Positions 1,101 to 27,325 of a stretch of DNA of 64,000 bases are shown piece by piece. The position numbers and the translations under genes were made by a program. Each line of letters opens with the position of its first letter. Position 1 is the stretch's first letter. The stretch comes from Nitrosopumilus sp. (GTDB taxonomy: Archaea > Thermoproteota > Nitrososphaeria > Nitrososphaerales > Nitrosopumilaceae), in assembly GCA_965238275.1 (NCBI GenBank), contig OZ250186.1, positions 832,001 to 896,000 on the forward strand, read 5' to 3'. The notes beneath the pieces were generated by a model. That model was not told where the DNA came from and ran no database searches. It worked only from the letters and a program-made list of their open reading frames with translations.

Positions 1101-1985
1101 ATGATTATGACCGTGATTGGAGGCGTGCGGGTGGGCAGACCCCACAGGATCCGCATAATGGGAATTCTCAATACCAGTCCCGAGTCATTCTACAGCGGGT
1201 CGGTCCGCACCGGCAATACTGCAATACGCGATGCTGCTAGGCAGATGGAGGATGACGGGGCCGACTTTATCGACGTGGGGGGAATGTCCACTGCGCCATA
1301 CCTTCAGACCATGATATCCGAGGGAACGGAGCGGGATCGAATTCTTAACGCGGTGCGCATAATCCAGGACGCATCAAACCTGCCCATATCAGTTGACACC
1401 TGCAGGGCCTCGGTGGCCCGGGCCGCCATGGAGTGCGGGGTTCGGATAATTAATGACATCACAGGACTAAAGTACGACCCGGAGATGAGGAATGTGGCAT
1501 CCAGGTATGCACCGTCCCTAATCCTGTGTGCGTACAGTTCCCGGCCTGTAAAGGGGAACCACGTGGCTGTCGCATCCGGACTATTACAGGAGAGTCTGGA
1601 TATTGCAAGACTTGCATCCGTCCCGGCAAACAAAATAGTGCTGGATCCGTCGATAGGATTATTCAGGAGGGATGGGAACGGCCCGTTCCATACAAGGATT
1701 AGGGGCAGCTGGGTATCCCGGGATCTTGCCGTGATCCGGAATCTAAAGCATATATCCCCAGACATTCCAATCATGGTATCCGTATCCAACAAGTCGTTTC
1801 TCGGATACCTGCTGAAAGAGGATGATCCCTCCCGAAGGCTGGCAGGATCCATTGCAGCCGAGACTGTGTCTGTCATGTCAGGCGCCAGCATCATCCGCAC
1901 CCACAACGTAAGGGCGGCCCGCGATGCGGCAACCGTTGCCACTGCGCTGATGCGTAGCAGCAGCAAGGACTCGGACGGTTGTTAG
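1101..1985 (+). CDS. folP: dihydropteroate synthase
   Basis: IMGILNTSPESF, DVGGMST, ISVDT, INDITG, LDPSIG, SNKSF, IIRTHNV motifs. Confidence 0.92.
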   Translation: MIMTVIGGVRVGRPHRIRIMGILNTSPESFYSGSVRTGNTAIRDAARQMEDDGADFIDVGGMSTAPYLQTMISEGTERDRILNAVRIIQDASNLPISVDTCRASVARAAMECGVRIINDITGLKYDPEMRNVASRYAPSLILCAYSSRPVKGNHVAVASGLLQESLDIARLASVPANKIVLDPSIGLFRRDGNGPFHTRIRGSWVSRDLAVIRNLKHISPDIPIMVSVSNKSFLGYLLKEDDPSRRLAGSIAAETVSVMSGASIIRTHNVRAARDAATVATALMRSSSKDSDGC

Positions 1986-2038
1986 AGACTGGCATCCCCC
2001 GGATATGGCCGGTTGCGCACGGCATCCAATACCTGAAT

Positions 2039-4060
2039 TTACAGTTTCAAAAGCATCCTTACAAGCCGATATAAATTGCCAAAACCCTGCTGGCTCATTC
2101 CGGACATGTATTGAAAATCACTTCTTGTAGTGTAGTTTCCGTTTGTCATGCATGCCGCATAAAGCACTGCAGCTGCAAGCCCGCTTGGTCTTCTGCCCAC
2201 GCCTCCGCCCGTATTGGTAATCCTGTCTGCATATTCCAAAGCCAGCTGTGTTGTTTTGGCGTCAGGACGTATCTGTTTAGAGTGTGCCATGATGTATTTT
2301 TTTATTCTTACGTTGGAATCAAAAGGATTTTTCGAATAAACATTAAGACCGATCTTCCTCTTTGCCTTGATGAAAACCTTGTTGTTCTGACTCACCTTTG
2401 TCAAATAATTGGTTCGTTGCAGATAGTCTATCCTGTTTCGAATTGCCTTTTCTGTTATATCTCCTCCCTCAAGCAGTTCTATTATGCCTTCAAGAGGGAT
2501 TGTTTCTTCCCTGATTATTCCCTTTATTTCATTGTCCAGTGCGCGTTTAATCAGTCTCTTATACCATGGCAATGGAATACCTGCCTGTTTCTGAAGGTAA
2601 TCTAGGCTTTCTAAAATCTGACTCGAAAAATTTGTTTTTGTGTCATGTTCCTGTCTGATTATCTCCTCCCATACCGTCTCCCATTCAAACTCTCCTGCCC
2701 GCACTATCAGTCCCATGTCCTGAATGTCGCCTTCCCTTGATGTCACAGCTTTTAGTAAAAACAGGTCTTCGTTGCAAAGAGTGTACAGATTCAGCCTGCC
2801 AAATTTTTCATGCGTGGCCCTTTTGATCATGCCATCCGAGAGTAGCAGCTTTTTTGCGATTCTGGTTTTGAACAGATCCACGCGGCTTCTTGCAGGATGC
2901 TCAAATATGTCAAACGGGTCTGTCCTGTTGTCATCCTCTGTGAAGCGTGATCTGTTTATGGACGCATATCCGATCTTCTCTAGGGCATTGACAAGCTCCT
3001 TTTCATGCTTCAGATCCGTTACAACGATGTCACAGTCCTTTGTTCTTTGCTTGATTCCTTTTTTTCTCATGTTCTCCCCTCCAAACAGATAGGCATCCAC
3101 TGGAACTGCCAGCTTGTCTCCAACCTCCTCAAAAAGCTCTGGATATGCGTTTGGGAGAGTATACAGTTCTGGGGGCATGTTGTACAGTCTTGCCTTCTCT
3201 TCAAATTCGGCCCTTGGCAGAAACAGCCTGTTGTTGGTTACGGGATTGTTTCTAATGTATCCCTCAATGTCCAGCCAGACATCAGATACCGAGTACAGTC
3301 TTGCCGTCGGCCTTATGTCTGCTGTATCCATCCTGCTTCTGTTCCTGAGATAGAACAACACGCACATTGTAGTCTCACTTTTGTTCTGATCTTTTACGGC
3401 CGCCACTATGGCATGAACCAGTACCTCCTCAATCCTTAACGGGGAATCCTGTCTTGCATAGTAGTCGTGCGTGGTATGGTATTCGATGCCGTAATCCCAA
3501 AACATGGAAAATCCAGTAAGCTCTCCCTTGATTTTTTTGCCTTTCTTGGCCTTCTTCAGCACCCTCAGGCTGTCTTGATAAATTATCTCAGAATCGGGTT
3601 CTATTAATGACAGCTCCTTTTCCGTCTTCAAATATTTTGCAAAAAGAAGAACCGTTTCCCTGTCCTGCCTTATGTGAATCCTGTCGTGGTTTCTCCTCAC
3701 TATTCCCACAGAGTCAAAATCCGATACTGCCCGCTGGACTGTTCTCAGGGAGAGCCCTGTGGCATCCTGCATCTCTTTGATCGTTGCAGGCTCTGTCATG
3801 TTGCACAGTACTGCTTCGTTTGAATCGTGAAGCAGGATCTGGACATCATACTGTTCTGCCACTTTGCTGAATAGTGCATATTTTGGATTGTGGTTCGTTC
3901 TCAAAACACCTCTGTCCCTGTTCAGATAGTTTTGGCTGATCAAATCATTTGCCAGCAGGTTGAGGTGGGACTCGCTTATTCCCAGAATCTGCCCTAGTCT
4001 GGACCTTTCTCCTATTCCCTTGCTCACCTGTTTTAGCAGTCGTATTGATGATTTTTTCAT
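2039..4060 (-). CDS. multidomain protein: tandem wHTH + DUF6036/AbiEii-like nucleotidyltransferase + wHTH + C-terminal TFIIB-type cyclin repeat
   Basis: HTH TIKEMQDATGLSLRTVQRAV; NTase LFGGENM...TKDCDIVV and LFLLKAVTSREGDIQD; C-terminal GRRPSGLAAAVLYAAC typical of TFB; low-GC islet; start reassigned to MKKSSI at 4060. Confidence 0.75.
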   Translation of the reverse strand: MKKSSIRLLKQVSKGIGERSRLGQILGISESHLNLLANDLISQNYLNRDRGVLRTNHNPKYALFSKVAEQYDVQILLHDSNEAVLCNMTEPATIKEMQDATGLSLRTVQRAVSDFDSVGIVRRNHDRIHIRQDRETVLLFAKYLKTEKELSLIEPDSEIIYQDSLRVLKKAKKGKKIKGELTGFSMFWDYGIEYHTTHDYYARQDSPLRIEEVLVHAIVAAVKDQNKSETTMCVLFYLRNRSRMDTADIRPTARLYSVSDVWLDIEGYIRNNPVTNNRLFLPRAEFEEKARLYNMPPELYTLPNAYPELFEEVGDKLAVPVDAYLFGGENMRKKGIKQRTKDCDIVVTDLKHEKELVNALEKIGYASINRSRFTEDDNRTDPFDIFEHPARSRVDLFKTRIAKKLLLSDGMIKRATHEKFGRLNLYTLCNEDLFLLKAVTSREGDIQDMGLIVRAGEFEWETVWEEIIRQEHDTKTNFSSQILESLDYLQKQAGIPLPWYKRLIKRALDNEIKGIIREETIPLEGIIELLEGGDITEKAIRNRIDYLQRTNYLTKVSQNNKVFIKAKRKIGLNVYSKNPFDSNVRIKKYIMAHSKQIRPDAKTTQLALEYADRITNTGGGVGRRPSGLAAAVLYAACMTNGNYTTRSDFQYMSGMSQQGFGNLYRLVRMLLKL

Positions 4061-4070
4061 TTTCAGTGTC

Positions 4071-4095
4071 TTAAGATAGCATATCTTAATATATA
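4071..4095 (-). promoter_or_regulatory. operator-like palindrome overlapping a TATA-like box
   Basis: Perfect inverted repeat TTAAGATA-gca-TATCTTAA (4071-4089) 11 nt upstream of the ATG at 4060, abutting a TATATAT tract. Confidence 0.55.
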
Positions 4096-4360
4096 TCCTA
4101 TTCTGTGACACTGAAATATCCATGTGGCTCCAGAATTGACTGAAACCACCGAGCATTCCAACCCCATGCCAACCGTCGTTTGGACTGTGGCCGTATGCAC
4201 AAGGGGAGGGGATCACGCAAACGACATCAATCATTGCTCATGGTAATGATTGCTAGACGACTGCATACGGTGCTGACGCCCTAGATACGGCAGTCCCGAC
4301 TGCCAGTATCCTCAAAACAAAGGCTTATAATCAATATGTACACTTCCTAACAAGGTTTCA

Positions 4361-5791
4361 TTGGAATTCAGAGAGGGGTTGACATTTGACGATGTTCTCC
4401 TAGTTCCCAAATACTCCAACATTACAAGCAGGAGCCAGACTGATCTGACCACCCGGCTGTCCCGCAACATCTCAATCAACATTCCGTTTGTAAGTGCAAA
4501 CATGGACACTGTCACCGAGTCCTCCATGGCAGTGGCCATGGCCCGGGCAGGCGGAATCGGCATCATACACAGGTTCCTGACGATAAGGGAGCAGACAGAC
4601 GAGGTCCTCAAGGTAAAGCGGTCAGGCAGCGTCATAATAGAGAACCCGTACCTGATATCCCAGGACAGATCCGTTCAGGATGCCATGAACTACGCAACAG
4701 AAAAGGATGTATCCGGACTGCTGGTGGTGGACTCTGAGTCCCGACTGGTCGGAATAATGACTGACAGGGATCTGCTGTTTGCCGATCCGCAGAACACCGT
4801 CATGGAGTGCATGACCAAGGACGTCATCTCTGCAAGACCCGGGGTGACCCTTGATGTCGCAAAGGAGATGCTGCACAGGCACAGGATCGAAAAGCTTCCC
4901 ATTATTGACGACTCTGGCAAGGTCATGGGGTTGATTACAAGCAAGGACATTACAAACATTGCAGACTTTCCAAACGCCTCCAAAGACGGCAAGGGCCGTC
5001 CGCTGGTGGGCGCAGCAGTGGGAGTCCGGGGGGACTTTCTGGAAAGAAGCGAGTCCCTGCTGGATGCGGGGGCAGACGTGCTTGTAGTGGACATAGCACA
5101 CGGCCACAGCGAAAACGCACTTAATGCAATCCGCAGCATCAAAAAGGCGTTCCCGGACGGAGAGCTGATTGCAGGAAATGTTGCAACCGCCAATGGCGCC
5201 CGGGATCTTATCCGGGCCGGAGTCGATGCCGTAAAGGTGGGGGTTGGTTCGGGCTCCATATGCATAACCCGCGTAATTACAGGCTCCGGCGTGCCGCAGC
5301 TTACTGCGGTAATGGACTGTGCACAGGTGGGGCGAGACGAGAACATCCCAATAATCTCAGACGGGGGCACGAGAAACTCCGGCGATGCCACCAAGGCACT
5401 GGCATCCGGTGCGTCATCAGTCATGGTGGGAAGCATGCTGGGAGGAACAGACGAATCTCCGGGTACCGTCCTGACAAAGAACGGAAAGCGCTTCAAGGTG
5501 TACCGCGGGATGGCCTCGCTTGCAGCATCCCTGGGACGCAAGTCAAAGGAGACCGGCCAGACATTCATCGACGACGAGATCAACGACTATGTGGCAGAGG
5601 GCGTCGAGGCGATGGTTCCATACAAGGGAACCGTAGTAGACATACTCAAGCAGCTTACAGGCGGGGTGCGCTCCGGCCTGAGCTACTGCGGGGCACACAC
5701 CATACTCCAGATGCAGGCAAATGCCGAGTTCATCAAGATGTCACGGGCCGGATTTGCAGAAAGCCAGCCGCACGATGTCTCACTGATGTGA
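4361..5791 (+). CDS. guaB: inosine-5'-monophosphate dehydrogenase with CBS domains
   Basis: LTFDDVLLVP, SANMDTVTE, catalytic GSGSICITR, YRGMAS, EGVE motifs. Confidence 0.97.
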   Translation: MEFREGLTFDDVLLVPKYSNITSRSQTDLTTRLSRNISINIPFVSANMDTVTESSMAVAMARAGGIGIIHRFLTIREQTDEVLKVKRSGSVIIENPYLISQDRSVQDAMNYATEKDVSGLLVVDSESRLVGIMTDRDLLFADPQNTVMECMTKDVISARPGVTLDVAKEMLHRHRIEKLPIIDDSGKVMGLITSKDITNIADFPNASKDGKGRPLVGAAVGVRGDFLERSESLLDAGADVLVVDIAHGHSENALNAIRSIKKAFPDGELIAGNVATANGARDLIRAGVDAVKVGVGSGSICITRVITGSGVPQLTAVMDCAQVGRDENIPIISDGGTRNSGDATKALASGASSVMVGSMLGGTDESPGTVLTKNGKRFKVYRGMASLAASLGRKSKETGQTFIDDEINDYVAEGVEAMVPYKGTVVDILKQLTGGVRSGLSYCGAHTILQMQANAEFIKMSRAGFAESQPHDVSLM

Positions 5792-25925: not shown

Positions 25926-27248
25926 ATGGAAATTCTGCACATCGGGTTTGACGATACCGACTCCCCCGAGGGAATGTGCACCACGTTTCTTGCCTACAAG
26001 ACGGCAGGCATGCTGCTCAAACAAGGGGACGTGTTTTTGGACTTTCCAAGGCTCGTTCGCTTCAATCCCAACATACCGTGGAAGACCCGGGGAAACGGGG
26101 CAGTCTCGATGAAGATCTCCACTGACAATCCCGACCGTGCCAAGGAACTGGTGCGGGATGTCGTGACCCAATACTCTGACACTGCCAACGGGGCCAACCC
26201 CGGGCTGGTGTTTGTCGAGGGAGACGAGATCCCGCCGGAATTTGCAGACCTTGGCCGCCTGGCGCTGTGGCAGCTTGTCAGCCGGGGCAGCGCAAGACGA
26301 CTGGTTCAAAGGAACAAACTTGACTACCTTTCCCTAGGGAACGGCCAGGGGTTGGTTGGCGCGATAGGCGCGATAGGGTACGAGTTTGGAGACTGCACGC
26401 TAGAACTTTTGGCATACCGCGCAAGAGGAATGCTGGGACAAAAGAGAAGAATATCTGCCAGCAGCGTCAAGGCCATGCAGGAAGAGACGTTTCCAGACAC
26501 CTTTGGCAGCGTTGACGACGCAAGCGGGCGCGTGCTGATAGCGCCGCACGGATCCGATCCCGTATTCTACGGGATTCGTGGGGAACGAGCCGACCGGCTG
26601 GTGCTGGCAGCAGGAATGCTTGAAAGTGACGAGCGGCCAGTCGGCCACATGATATTCAAGTCAAACCAGGGCACGGGCGACCATCTCCGGCATGACCTGG
26701 ATGAAAGCACCATGACACCCTACACTTCCGGAAGAATCACCGGAACCGTGTCTGTCCGGCCGCGGATCATGCGCGGCGGGCACGTCGTGTTTGGCGTAAA
26801 ATCAAACGGAGTTGAATTCGGATGCGCAGTATACCGTCCCACGGGATTCTCCACTGCGGCCTCGCACCTGATGCCCGGCGACAGGGTGTGCGCGGGCGGC
26901 GGCATAAGGCGCGCATCACCAAACCATCCCAGGACGATCAGCTTGGAGTTCCTTGATGTGCAGGGCCTTCAGACCGACGTTGTCCCCTCAAACCCCCGGT
27001 GCCCGAAGTGCTCCAAGAGGATGAAATCCAAGGGACGCGGGCAGGGGTTCAAGTGCGTCCGTTGCGGCACGACATCGGAGCGGAAGGAGGATGCCGTCAT
27101 GCCCCGATTGGTTCGATGCCAGACGTACACGCCTGTAGCATCTGCCCGGAGGCACCTTACCCGCCCTCCGGAGCGGATTGGAAGATGCAATACTGCTCCA
27201 TTTGACGGATCGGTTTCGTGGTTTTATAGTAATAATAGCGGGGAGTAG
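25926..27248 (+). CDS. tiaS: tRNA(Ile2) agmatinylcytidine synthase
   Basis: IGFDDTDS..GMCTT, RLVRFNPNIPWKTRGNGA, SNQGTGDHL, Zn ribbon, RRHLTRP. Confidence 0.95.
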   Translation: MEILHIGFDDTDSPEGMCTTFLAYKTAGMLLKQGDVFLDFPRLVRFNPNIPWKTRGNGAVSMKISTDNPDRAKELVRDVVTQYSDTANGANPGLVFVEGDEIPPEFADLGRLALWQLVSRGSARRLVQRNKLDYLSLGNGQGLVGAIGAIGYEFGDCTLELLAYRARGMLGQKRRISASSVKAMQEETFPDTFGSVDDASGRVLIAPHGSDPVFYGIRGERADRLVLAAGMLESDERPVGHMIFKSNQGTGDHLRHDLDESTMTPYTSGRITGTVSVRPRIMRGGHVVFGVKSNGVEFGCAVYRPTGFSTAASHLMPGDRVCAGGGIRRASPNHPRTISLEFLDVQGLQTDVVPSNPRCPKCSKRMKSKGRGQGFKCVRCGTTSERKEDAVMPRLVRCQTYTPVASARRHLTRPPERIGRCNTAPFDGSVSWFYSNNSGE

Positions 27249-27325
27249 ATTTGAACTACTGATTTGCGGGTTATGAGCCCGCCGGGATGACTTAGCCCTG
27301 ATGAGTCTGACTTCCCCACCCCGCT
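27236..27325 (-). tRNA. tRNA-iMet(CAT) with a 15-nt non-canonical D-loop intron (27292-27306)
   Basis: AGCGGGG acceptor with A1-U72; GCGGG-CTCATAA-CCCGC anticodon arm; 90 nt minus 15-nt intron gives 75 nt; BHB motif present. Confidence 0.9.

Follow-up and report, generated by a model that had tools for sequence, protein, structure and literature searches.

Within a 64,000-nucleotide stretch of a Nitrosopumilus sp. genome (GCA_965238275.1, contig OZ250186.1, positions 832,001 to 896,000; hereafter the window), we analyzed a minus-strand gene at 2039..4060, an open reading frame (ORF) of 673 codons plus stop. It encodes a single polypeptide in which two N-terminal winged helix-turn-helix (wHTH) domains are followed by a middle domain, a nucleotidyltransferase (NTase) of the polymerase beta (pol-beta) fold, a third wHTH and one cyclin repeat of the archaeal basal transcription factor TFB (TFIIB). 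The reading that we favor, with a probability of roughly 0.5, is that the protein represents an autoregulated single-chain NTase module resembling the AbiE and MenAT toxin-antitoxin (TA) systems, in which the captured TFB repeat is an accessory for protein contacts. As far as the literature found goes, the combination of NTase and TFB repeat appears to be undescribed. Searches for TFIIB-nucleotidyltransferase-antitoxin fusions in archaea returned nothing relevant, those for Nitrosopumilus TFB/TBP paralogs or defense systems of ammonia oxidizers returned nothing pertinent, and none of the literature covered, which leaves out most subscription journals, dealt with DUF6036 or HVO_2833.

Architecture of the fusion and its C-terminal TFB repeat

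An earlier sequence-only reading of the window had taken the C-terminal ~90 residues for the second repeat of TFB, and domain search, profile, fold and tree all bear this out. Residues 591-666 matched Pfam TFIIB (PF00382) with 26.7 bits, which passes the gathering cut-off of 23.6, and the same match was found in 43 of 45 aligned TFB-type homologues at E <= 0.01 (best 1.6e-13). When a family profile was compared with P. woesei TFB (1ais_B/1d3u_B), repeat 2 scored 48.5 bits (i-E 5e-12) and repeat 1 scored 26 bits. The modeled residues 585-673 superpose on 1ais_B (chain residues 1207-1295) with Z 16.1 and a root-mean-square deviation (rmsd) of 1.2 A over 89 residues at 24% identity, the top match by VIA. 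The fold is thus that of P. woesei repeat 2, and the worry that the C-terminus might not adopt a TFIIB/cyclin fold can be set aside. In a cyclin tree of 45 family domains, both repeats of the five TFBs of this genome and one solo repeat, repeat 1 separated from the rest with an SH-aLRT support of 100 and the family fell on the repeat-2 side; the tree was made by a quick method on 100 columns, and its inner order is not resolved.

The domain does not amount to a complete TFB. The NCBIfam TFB model PRK00423 was matched only at model positions 210-300 of 312, with 23.2 bits against a cut-off of 384, and the protein has one repeat, without Zn ribbon, B-reader/linker or repeat 1; five complete TFBs are encoded elsewhere in the same genome. 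All five keep GV[TS][ED]VTIRNR in the last helix pair, where the window protein has GMSQQGFGNLYRLV and the family consensus reads S.pS...LYK. The structural helix GRxPxxLAAAxxY is retained in the family domain. According to the available part of PMC4581349, the helix-turn-helix of TFB repeat 2 enters the major groove at the B recognition element (BRE). Because this recognition helix is not kept in the family, canonical BRE reading by its cyclin domain is unlikely, and we regard it instead as a surface for contacts with proteins. A complex prediction for the cyclin domain (576-673) with one of the genome's four TBPs (L074) scored 0.02 against a mark of 0.32 and carries no weight either way.

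Two side observations concern the TFB complement of this genome. In its 2.2 Mb, TFB is encoded by five complete genes and TBP by four (L001-L010, L074-L079). A further 161-aa ORF (L012:1435-1920, minus strand) has a single TFIIB repeat (38.1 bits), which groups with TFB repeat 2 (support 98) and lacks the TIRNR helix motif.

The fusion is genuine and shared by relatives; it is not an artefact. A word-indexed search found 181 relatives, and all of those with an organism name are Nitrososphaerota. The same architecture had been proposed as something to look for in archaea, and it proved common: among 120 relatives of at least 540 aa (a set that includes the window protein and its near-identical cluster), two purpose-built hidden Markov models labeled 62 C-terminal ends as TFB-type, 35 as another end and 23 as neither. 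With one genome per species, the full TFB form occupies 5 of 52 family loci (L018-L022). The stretch also occurs in 20 runs belonging to 8 studies. Three other studies provide contigs (X6, X10, X14) that span folP, the gene and guaB (1800-4369) and differ from the window by 7-9 substitutions and one indel, an additional AT in the promoter, after 4088 and outside the coding sequence; contig X2 is identical to the window and may be its source. The frame is open and complete in the contigs of all four runs compared. A confirmation of the frame in raw reads had been asked for, and what can be said is that the contigs of the three other studies, which are contigs and not raw reads, contain no frame-breaking indel. 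Together with the 62 homologues, these independent contigs speak against a unique fusion or one created by a frameshift or assembly error. In the close family only 9 proteins are short or split, and most of these are fragments. When region 571-673 was used as a query among proteins of 370-1178 aa, it retrieved its own cluster only, by a word filter that is probably too insensitive for a divergent domain.

The longest possible ORF extends to 4234 (731 aa). We consider the 673-aa start correct because aligned homologues begin at the residue equivalent to its M1 and a promoter/operator lies at 4061-4116. An AlphaFold2 model of the whole protein, made with 45 homologues, had a mean predicted local distance difference test (pLDDT) score of 87.2 and a predicted template modeling score (pTM) of 0.72. 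It contains three winged helices (1-70, 71-134, ~506-579), an alpha/beta middle region (135-300) and, at 301-520, an NTase that includes a helical bundle; five terminal helices (582-671) close the chain. ORF, Pfam, VIA and model thus confirm the layout first read from the letters alone, namely one 673-aa ORF with two N-terminal HTHs, an NTase, a further wHTH and a TFB-like end (Table 1). Foldseek returned no match for the whole protein in the PDB at E <= 0.001. The third wHTH (506-579) resembles SmtB, YtfH, RosR and MecI (VIA Z 9.5-11.2, with SmtB-like matches up to 11.2).

Table 1. Features of the locus in window coordinates
Feature	Position	Strand	Basis
Low-GC insert between folP (Pterin_bind) and guaB (IMPDH)	1987..4303		GC, congener spacing, alignment to G182/G406, loose ends at 4312
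Coding sequence, 673 aa + stop (P0001)	2039..4060	-	Full-length homologues, 37-68% identity
wHTH 1, residues 1-70	3851..4060	-	Model secondary structure; VIA Z 9.5-9.9 over 1-56/1-70
wHTH 2, residues 71-134	3659..3850	-	Pfam HTH at 89-131; TrmB/MarR-type matches in 22-34 of 45 homologues
Middle domain, residues 135-300	3161..3658	-	Homologous to HVO_2833_C-type C-terminal domain; weak AbiEi fold likeness
Pol-beta-fold NTase + helical domain, DUF6036-like, residues 301-520	2501..3160	-	Pfam near cut-off; MenT1 fold
Catalytic motif GGENMRKKGIKQRTKDCD, G327-D344	3029..3082	-	Invariant residues in 45/45 sequences
wHTH 3, residues 521-570	2351..2500	-	VIA matches over 506-579
Single TFB/TFIIB cyclin repeat, repeat-2 type, residues 585-673	2042..2308	-	Pfam, profile, tree, fold
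Promoter/operator, outer inverted repeat around TATA-like element	Arms 4061-4084 and 4093-4116; TATA ~4085-4096	-	Downstream arm ends at ATG

The cyclin domain is the least conserved part of the TFB-type forms, with a mean pairwise identity of 31%, where the core (middle, NTase and helical parts) reaches 55-57%. For a core tree by FastTree we took residues 1-560 of 119 proteins, excluding P0002, which nearly duplicates the window protein. In it the forms with the other end make up one clade with support 100, while TFB-type and endless forms are interleaved, requiring 15 changes in total, at least 11 of them forced by well-supported branches. From its low conservation and this interleaving with forms that lack it, we read the TFB repeat as an optional add-on. 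The other end is a conserved C-terminal domain of 120-130 aa (YLxWRF...IGEID...VGAxRICxGL) found in relatives of ~700 aa; a relationship between it and the TFB-type domain was considered and rejected (hhalign probability 1.6%).

Some endless forms are frameshift splits: just past the stop and in another frame, a TFB-type domain can be read in L023 and the other domain in L044. The remaining four of six endless loci examined (L024, L026, L065 and the window genome's own paralogue, L014) showed no trace of a C-terminal domain past the stop. In the two split genes (L023:7660-8039, L044:7690-8014) the frameshift falls in the linker before the C-terminal domain and could reflect mutation, assembly error or recoding.

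A two-gene module and its nucleotidyltransferase

Next, we considered the origin of the N-terminal part. The middle domain folded with confidence on its own (pLDDT 89). Foldseek gave no match for it at E <= 0.001. Among 48,161 representative chains its top fold match was AbiEi (6y8q_A, chain 58-195; Z 6.8, rmsd 4.0 A, 97 residues), followed by MenT1 (Z 5.0) and the AbiEi homologue Rv2827c (1zel_B, Z 4.1). As Z 6.8 lies below the tool's caution line of 8, the match is treated as a lead only, and the window protein has no AbiEi match in Pfam. The AbiEi-like middle region of the sequence-only reading is therefore retained only in the sense that AbiEi is the best fold match.

Sequence profiles were more informative. 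A middle-domain profile run against 1.84 billion representatives retrieved 218 proteins at E <= 0.001; among them are the 500-730-aa family itself and proteins of ~285-320 aa in which the domain lies C-terminal to two winged helices. Pfam PF24271 (HVO_2833_C) was matched in 6 of the 10 stand-alone relatives scanned, above the cut-off in 5, and in 8 of 45 close homologues. By hhalign, the middle domain (A2) aligned with the 288-aa group (A4) over 148 columns with 98.9% probability (E 1.3e-17). The organism label of two of the six stand-alone clusters looked up is Woesearchaeota, and the rest carry no label. In 70 of 80 stand-alone metagenome loci, an ORF of ~221 aa resembling the family NTase is the next gene downstream on the same strand and abuts or overlaps the first; it was called with a family profile of residues 300-520 (E 1e-11 to 1e-39). 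Seven of the ten loci without it have less than 160 bp of contig left after the gene. The three stand-alone NTases scanned all pass the DUF6036 cut-off (33.8-45.7 bits), and the ~221-aa proteins lack the third wHTH.

Because of the homology of the middle domain and the family-like NTase gene directly downstream of its stand-alone form, we interpret the window protein as a fused two-gene pair. It reads as a fusion of a protein with two wHTHs and an HVO_2833_C-type domain to a DUF6036 NTase, to which the third wHTH and the C-terminal domain were then added. The proposal that the HTH-NTase arrangement derives from a TA-like pair is upheld insofar as the two-gene form exists. Apart from this, a protein-atlas lead with a score of 0.89 consists of a candidate 549-aa wHTH-DUF6036 cluster in methanogens.

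The NTase itself looks catalytically intact. The pol-beta NTase signature is hG[GS]-x9-13-Dh[DE]h plus a third acidic residue. The window NTase conforms to it with LFGG-x13-DCDIVV (G327...D344), invariant in 45 of 45 sequences, and with D395 as a nearly invariant acidic residue. Residues G327, G328, E329, N330, M331, R332, K337, T340, K341, D342, C343 and D344 are invariant throughout this set, as are H388, K437, R442, G444 and D448, and N430-E431-D432 is nearly so. The minimal NTase fold is present, with MenT1 as a fold match (8an4_A, Z 12.3, rmsd 3.8 A, 173 residues) and ANT(2'') (Z 10.4), MenT4 (Z 10.2), 5uvd (Z 9.9) and LnuA (Z 9.5) as further neighbors (VIA). The GG...DxD NTase seen at the outset is therefore genuine in motif and in fold. 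Its assignment to DUF6036 (PF19502) is borderline: the whole protein scores 20.4 bits and the domain alone 23.2, just under the cut-off of 23.6, and 26 of 45 homologues match at E <= 0.01. AbiEii/DUF1814 had no Pfam match at E <= 1 in the window protein. As described in the accessible portions of PMC10435456 and PMC11375011, MenT toxins attach nucleotides to tRNA acceptor ends and are silenced by their antitoxins through induced auto-phosphorylation. Three more small ORFs of the genome (L160, L161, L163; 167-181 aa) match DUF6036, two of them above the Pfam cut-off, and are possibly other stand-alone NTase modules.

A nested operator and possible roles of the TFB repeat

The promoter of the gene lies within a nested set of inverted repeats. 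The outer one is a 24-nt imperfect palindrome, 79% complementary over the full arms, whose 9-nt arms pair at 9 of 9 positions. In every TFB-type locus the order is TTCAGTGTCAta, then ~31 nt that include a TATA box, then taTGACACTGAA, which lies at the start codon or no more than a few bases away. Other subfamilies preserve this geometry with co-varying arms (TTTATTATCA/TGATAATAAA, TTAGTATCA/TGATACTAA, TCGGTATCA/TGATACCGA and TTAGTACCA/TGGTACTAA), and they also have an inner repeat (CACA...TGTG or GCA...TGC) beside the TATA box. Between the subfamilies the arms co-vary as GTGTCA/TGACAC, TTATCA/TGATAA, GTATCA/TGATAC and GGTATCA/TGATACC. We scored 9-nt arms with a spacer of 24-40 nt ending near the start. 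Among 46 family promoters, some of them from near-duplicate loci, 21 had 9/9 arms and 10 had 8/9; among 511 control upstream regions of the same loci the numbers were 1 and 18. The two-gene relatives show the same layout of nested inverted repeat, TATA box and ATG. At window position 4088, where the contigs of the three other studies have the extra AT, the operator arm spacing in those contigs is lengthened to 38 nt from the family's usual 36.

This conserved nested repeat around the gene's own TATA box points to autoregulation, a mode that AbiEi uses through promoter inverted repeats (PMC7319586, in the part available). Four half-sites and two N-terminal winged helices per chain suggest a dimer that brackets the BRE/TATA region, with the inner sites overlapping it, as a putative autorepressor. 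The distance of the TATA box to the ATG, ~25-35 nt, would imply a leaderless or nearly leaderless mRNA, given the usual archaeal TATA-to-start distance. Subfamilies and two-gene relatives without a TFB domain share this layout, so the domain is not needed for operator use. The operator, which the sequence-only reading had not noticed, adds a third possible role for it, at the gene's own promoter.

In the reading that we favor, a DNA-binding, antitoxin-like half made of two wHTHs and the HVO_2833_C-type domain is fused to a DUF6036 pol-beta NTase, with the third wHTH and one captured repeat-2 domain of TFB added at the C-terminus. A dimer sitting on four half-sites through its N-terminal wHTHs would cover the BRE and TATA box and shut its own promoter. 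The NTase would be a growth-arresting or signaling enzyme, by analogy a tRNA or protein nucleotidyl-transferase, restrained in cis by the antitoxin-like half. The fast-evolving, dispensable TFB repeat would act as a protein contact and not as a BRE reader, linking the module with the transcription apparatus or with some factor that recognizes TFB-like surfaces, and would thereby serve as a trigger sensor or a targeting device. TBP, RNA polymerase (RNAP), a TFB-binding host or viral factor and the protein's own NTase are all candidates for its partner.

Several observations weigh against this interpretation. PADLOC gave only generic HTH/Csa3/CasR-type matches to the winged helices and none for the NTase, and no relative was found among 42 pattern matches in IMG/VR viral contigs. 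The window neighbors are housekeeping genes of folate and purine metabolism and form no defense island. The NTase is DUF6036-like and not AbiEii DUF1814, and the AbiEi likeness of the middle domain is weak. As the covalent fusion of toxin and antitoxin excludes differential stability, classical TA logic does not transfer directly. Enzyme-repressor fusions with ordinary metabolic roles, such as NadR and BirA, are known. Among near-identical strains, seven of nine coding substitutions, too few for a test, are non-synonymous; one of them, D445N, hits a nearly invariant residue, and constraint may be relaxed in this lineage. The toxin or defense role of the module is one assigned by analogy.

The main rival, which we hold to be doubtful, is that the protein is a dedicated TFB-mimicking repressor and no toxin: it would bind palindromes around TATA boxes, its cyclin domain would take the TFB site on TBP-DNA and block the preinitiation complex, and the NTase would sense nucleotides or modify itself to tune repression. 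The three winged helices and the conserved operator centered on the TATA box agree with this, and several homologues are named 'predicted transcriptional regulator' in their sources. The location fits as well, for in TFB the second repeat is found next to the TBP stirrup, on the upstream side of TATA (PMC4581349, from the part at hand), which is the place of the upstream inner half-site. However, the operator layout is identical in subfamilies and two-gene relatives that have no TFB domain. Nor is a regulon visible, since an exact search of the genome for AGTGTCA-N20-45-TGACACT found two places, one of them a truncated further copy of the gene, while the window's own operator is one base off the pattern. 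The invariance of the catalytic residues argues for an active enzyme, and the overlapping or abutting two-gene form is typical of TA pairs.

A second reading, unlikely in our estimate, specifies what the repeat would sense. The TFB repeat would be a decoy: a protein of a virus or selfish element that attacks TFB or the TBP-TFB complex would bind the look-alike, free the cis-inhibited NTase and so arrest the infected cell. Sister subfamilies would then swap the sensor for other domains or pass the signal to DO-GTPase/GAP1 partners.

Whatever the role of the repeat, the neighbors of the ~700-aa sister subfamily count among the signs of an accessory gene. In 13 of its 50 loci the next genes fall into one or both of two clusters (both in 9), and the only pair scanned, that of L028, matches DO-GTPase1/2 and GAP1-N2. 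The 13 loci with follower genes (L028:6001-10316, L025, L027, L029, L036, L038, L039, L041, L044, L047, L048, L051 and L066) resemble a three-gene conflict-system variant in Nitrosopumilus-like genomes.

It is improbable that the TFB repeat instead delivers the NTase to the transcription machinery, where it would nucleotidylylate TBP, TFB, RNAP or nascent RNA and shut transcription down. Protein-modifying pol-beta NTases such as GlnE/GlnD and the MNT antitoxins are known, which we counted for this possibility. Also in its favor, an intact-looking NTase is joined here to a descendant of a TFB domain that touches TBP and promoter DNA (PMC4581349, in its accessible part). On the other hand, the nearest folds (MenT1/MenT4, ANT(2''), LnuA) modify tRNA or small molecules, most of the superfamily has no TFB domain, and the DNA-reading helix has diverged.

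Genomic setting and relation to known systems

The gene lies in an insertion of low GC content (43-47% in the gene, 53-59% in the flanks) between a folP-like Pterin_bind gene and IMPDH, with an MptE-like gene also among the flanking genes. Among the other genomes of the genus, 20 have both genes on one contig, and in 19 of these 45-54 bp separate the ends of the folP and guaB alignments; the gap is 449 bp in the nearest relative, G182, and 2378 bp in this genome. The filler of G182 (L070:234-621; 388 bp, 42% GC) is unrelated to the window insert, and contigs with a filler of this type occur in the same metagenomes as the window form, giving loose ends at 4312. We note the folP-guaB spacer (window 1987-4311) as an insertion hot spot. 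No convincing terminal repeats or target-site duplications were seen at the insert borders.

A genome survey recorded the core family in 30 of the 401 genomes sampled across the phylum and in 18 of 161 genera; within the genus, 3 of the 23 other genomes have it, and the full TFB form occurs in this genome (G000) and G182 only. The gene has the profile of an accessory element that moves horizontally and is patchily distributed. A paralogue in the same genome (L014:1432-3204, minus strand; G000:C1:533858-535555) encodes 591 aa with 41% identity over 3-556, lacks the C-terminal domain and has operator arms of another type (TTAGTACTA / CAATACTAA, 7/9). The truncated further copy (L073:1501-1910; G000:C1:1716090-1716499) has a perfect operator, AGTGTCA-N35-TGACACT, with a TATA box; its 126-aa ORF is 50% identical to the window protein over the first ~84 family residues and then breaks off, so that wHTH 1 and the promoter are kept. 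A 252-aa ORF beside it has a transposase-like look, but this label was dropped for want of a Pfam match at E <= 0.001. Elsewhere in the window (27236-27325, minus strand), ARAGORN called a 90-nt tRNA with a four-base anticodon (aagt) and no assigned identity, maybe a misread intron-containing archaeal tRNA.

A further possibility is that this genome picked up the gene, or at any rate the TFB domain, only recently and carries it as a functionally decaying passenger. This would accord with the low-GC insertion, the non-synonymous strain substitutions, the long end branch of the window's cyclin domain (0.59, against 0.07-0.34 in its nearest relatives on the cyclin tree), the frameshift-split relatives and the truncated copy, but we think it a poor bet given the frame kept open in the contigs of all four runs with the sole indel outside the coding sequence, the presence of all invariant catalytic and structural residues in a confidently modeled protein, and the well-paired operator arms.

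The two-gene relatives resemble AbiE, MenA3-MenT3 and MenA4-MenT4 in that an upstream wHTH protein with a C-terminal domain precedes a pol-beta NTase gene. The promoter inverted repeats of the family have a counterpart in AbiE, where they are used for autoregulation (PMC7319586, PMC3985639, both seen in excerpt), and the window protein is further linked to AbiE/MenAT by the NTase fold near MenT1/MenT4 and, tentatively, by AbiEi as the weak top fold match of its middle domain. It differs from AbiE in being one polypeptide and not bicistronic, in having two N-terminal wHTHs instead of one, in its DUF6036-like rather than DUF1814/AbiEii NTase, in an operator that brackets an archaeal TATA box, and in its additional third wHTH and TFB repeat. 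Membership in AbiE proper fails on toxin family and gene structure; by analogy, it is plausible that the family works like AbiE.

With repeat 2 of TFB/TFIIB the window domain shares the five-helix cyclin fold, the tree grouping and the GRxPxxLAAAxxY helix; it departs from TFB as a lone repeat without Zn ribbon, B-reader or repeat 1, in its replaced recognition helix and in its fast evolution. The two-gene module of PF24271-type protein and DUF6036 NTase, seen in Woesearchaeota-labeled and other archaeal contigs, has the same middle domain, NTase and promoter design, and differs by its two genes and by lacking the third wHTH and the TFB repeat. CapRel-SJ46 is a fused toxin-antitoxin sensor. Like the window protein, it combines a toxin-family enzyme and its own inhibitory part in one chain with a variable C-terminus as the possible trigger sensor; the enzyme family is different, and the likeness is one of analogy only. 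DO-GTPase and GAP1-N2 proteins are components of predicted conflict systems (PMC7159879, in the portion available). They are linked to the family through the sister subfamily only, and unlike those loci, the window and the TFB-type loci L018-L022 have no conserved neighbors. The available portion of that text (Kaur et al. 2020) makes no mention of a wHTH-NTase component, Thaumarchaeota or TFIIB.

The TA and defense biology of ammonia-oxidizing archaea is almost unexplored. This locus defines a widespread archaeal two-gene module of wHTH/HVO_2833_C protein and DUF6036 NTase with an AbiE-like layout, of which we found no description. It shows the single-chain fusion of this module in Nitrososphaeria, with fused forms in methanogens suggested by the protein-atlas lead, and it shows that half of a basal transcription factor has been captured by such a module. 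The nested palindrome at an archaeal TATA box offers a model for how a bacterial-type repressor closes a eukaryote-type promoter. If the TFB repeat serves as a sensor or targeting device, it would be the first general transcription factor domain in a prokaryotic conflict system; if it is a decoy, the protein would be an archaeal single-chain, guard-type TA immune sensor built from a domain of a basal transcription factor.

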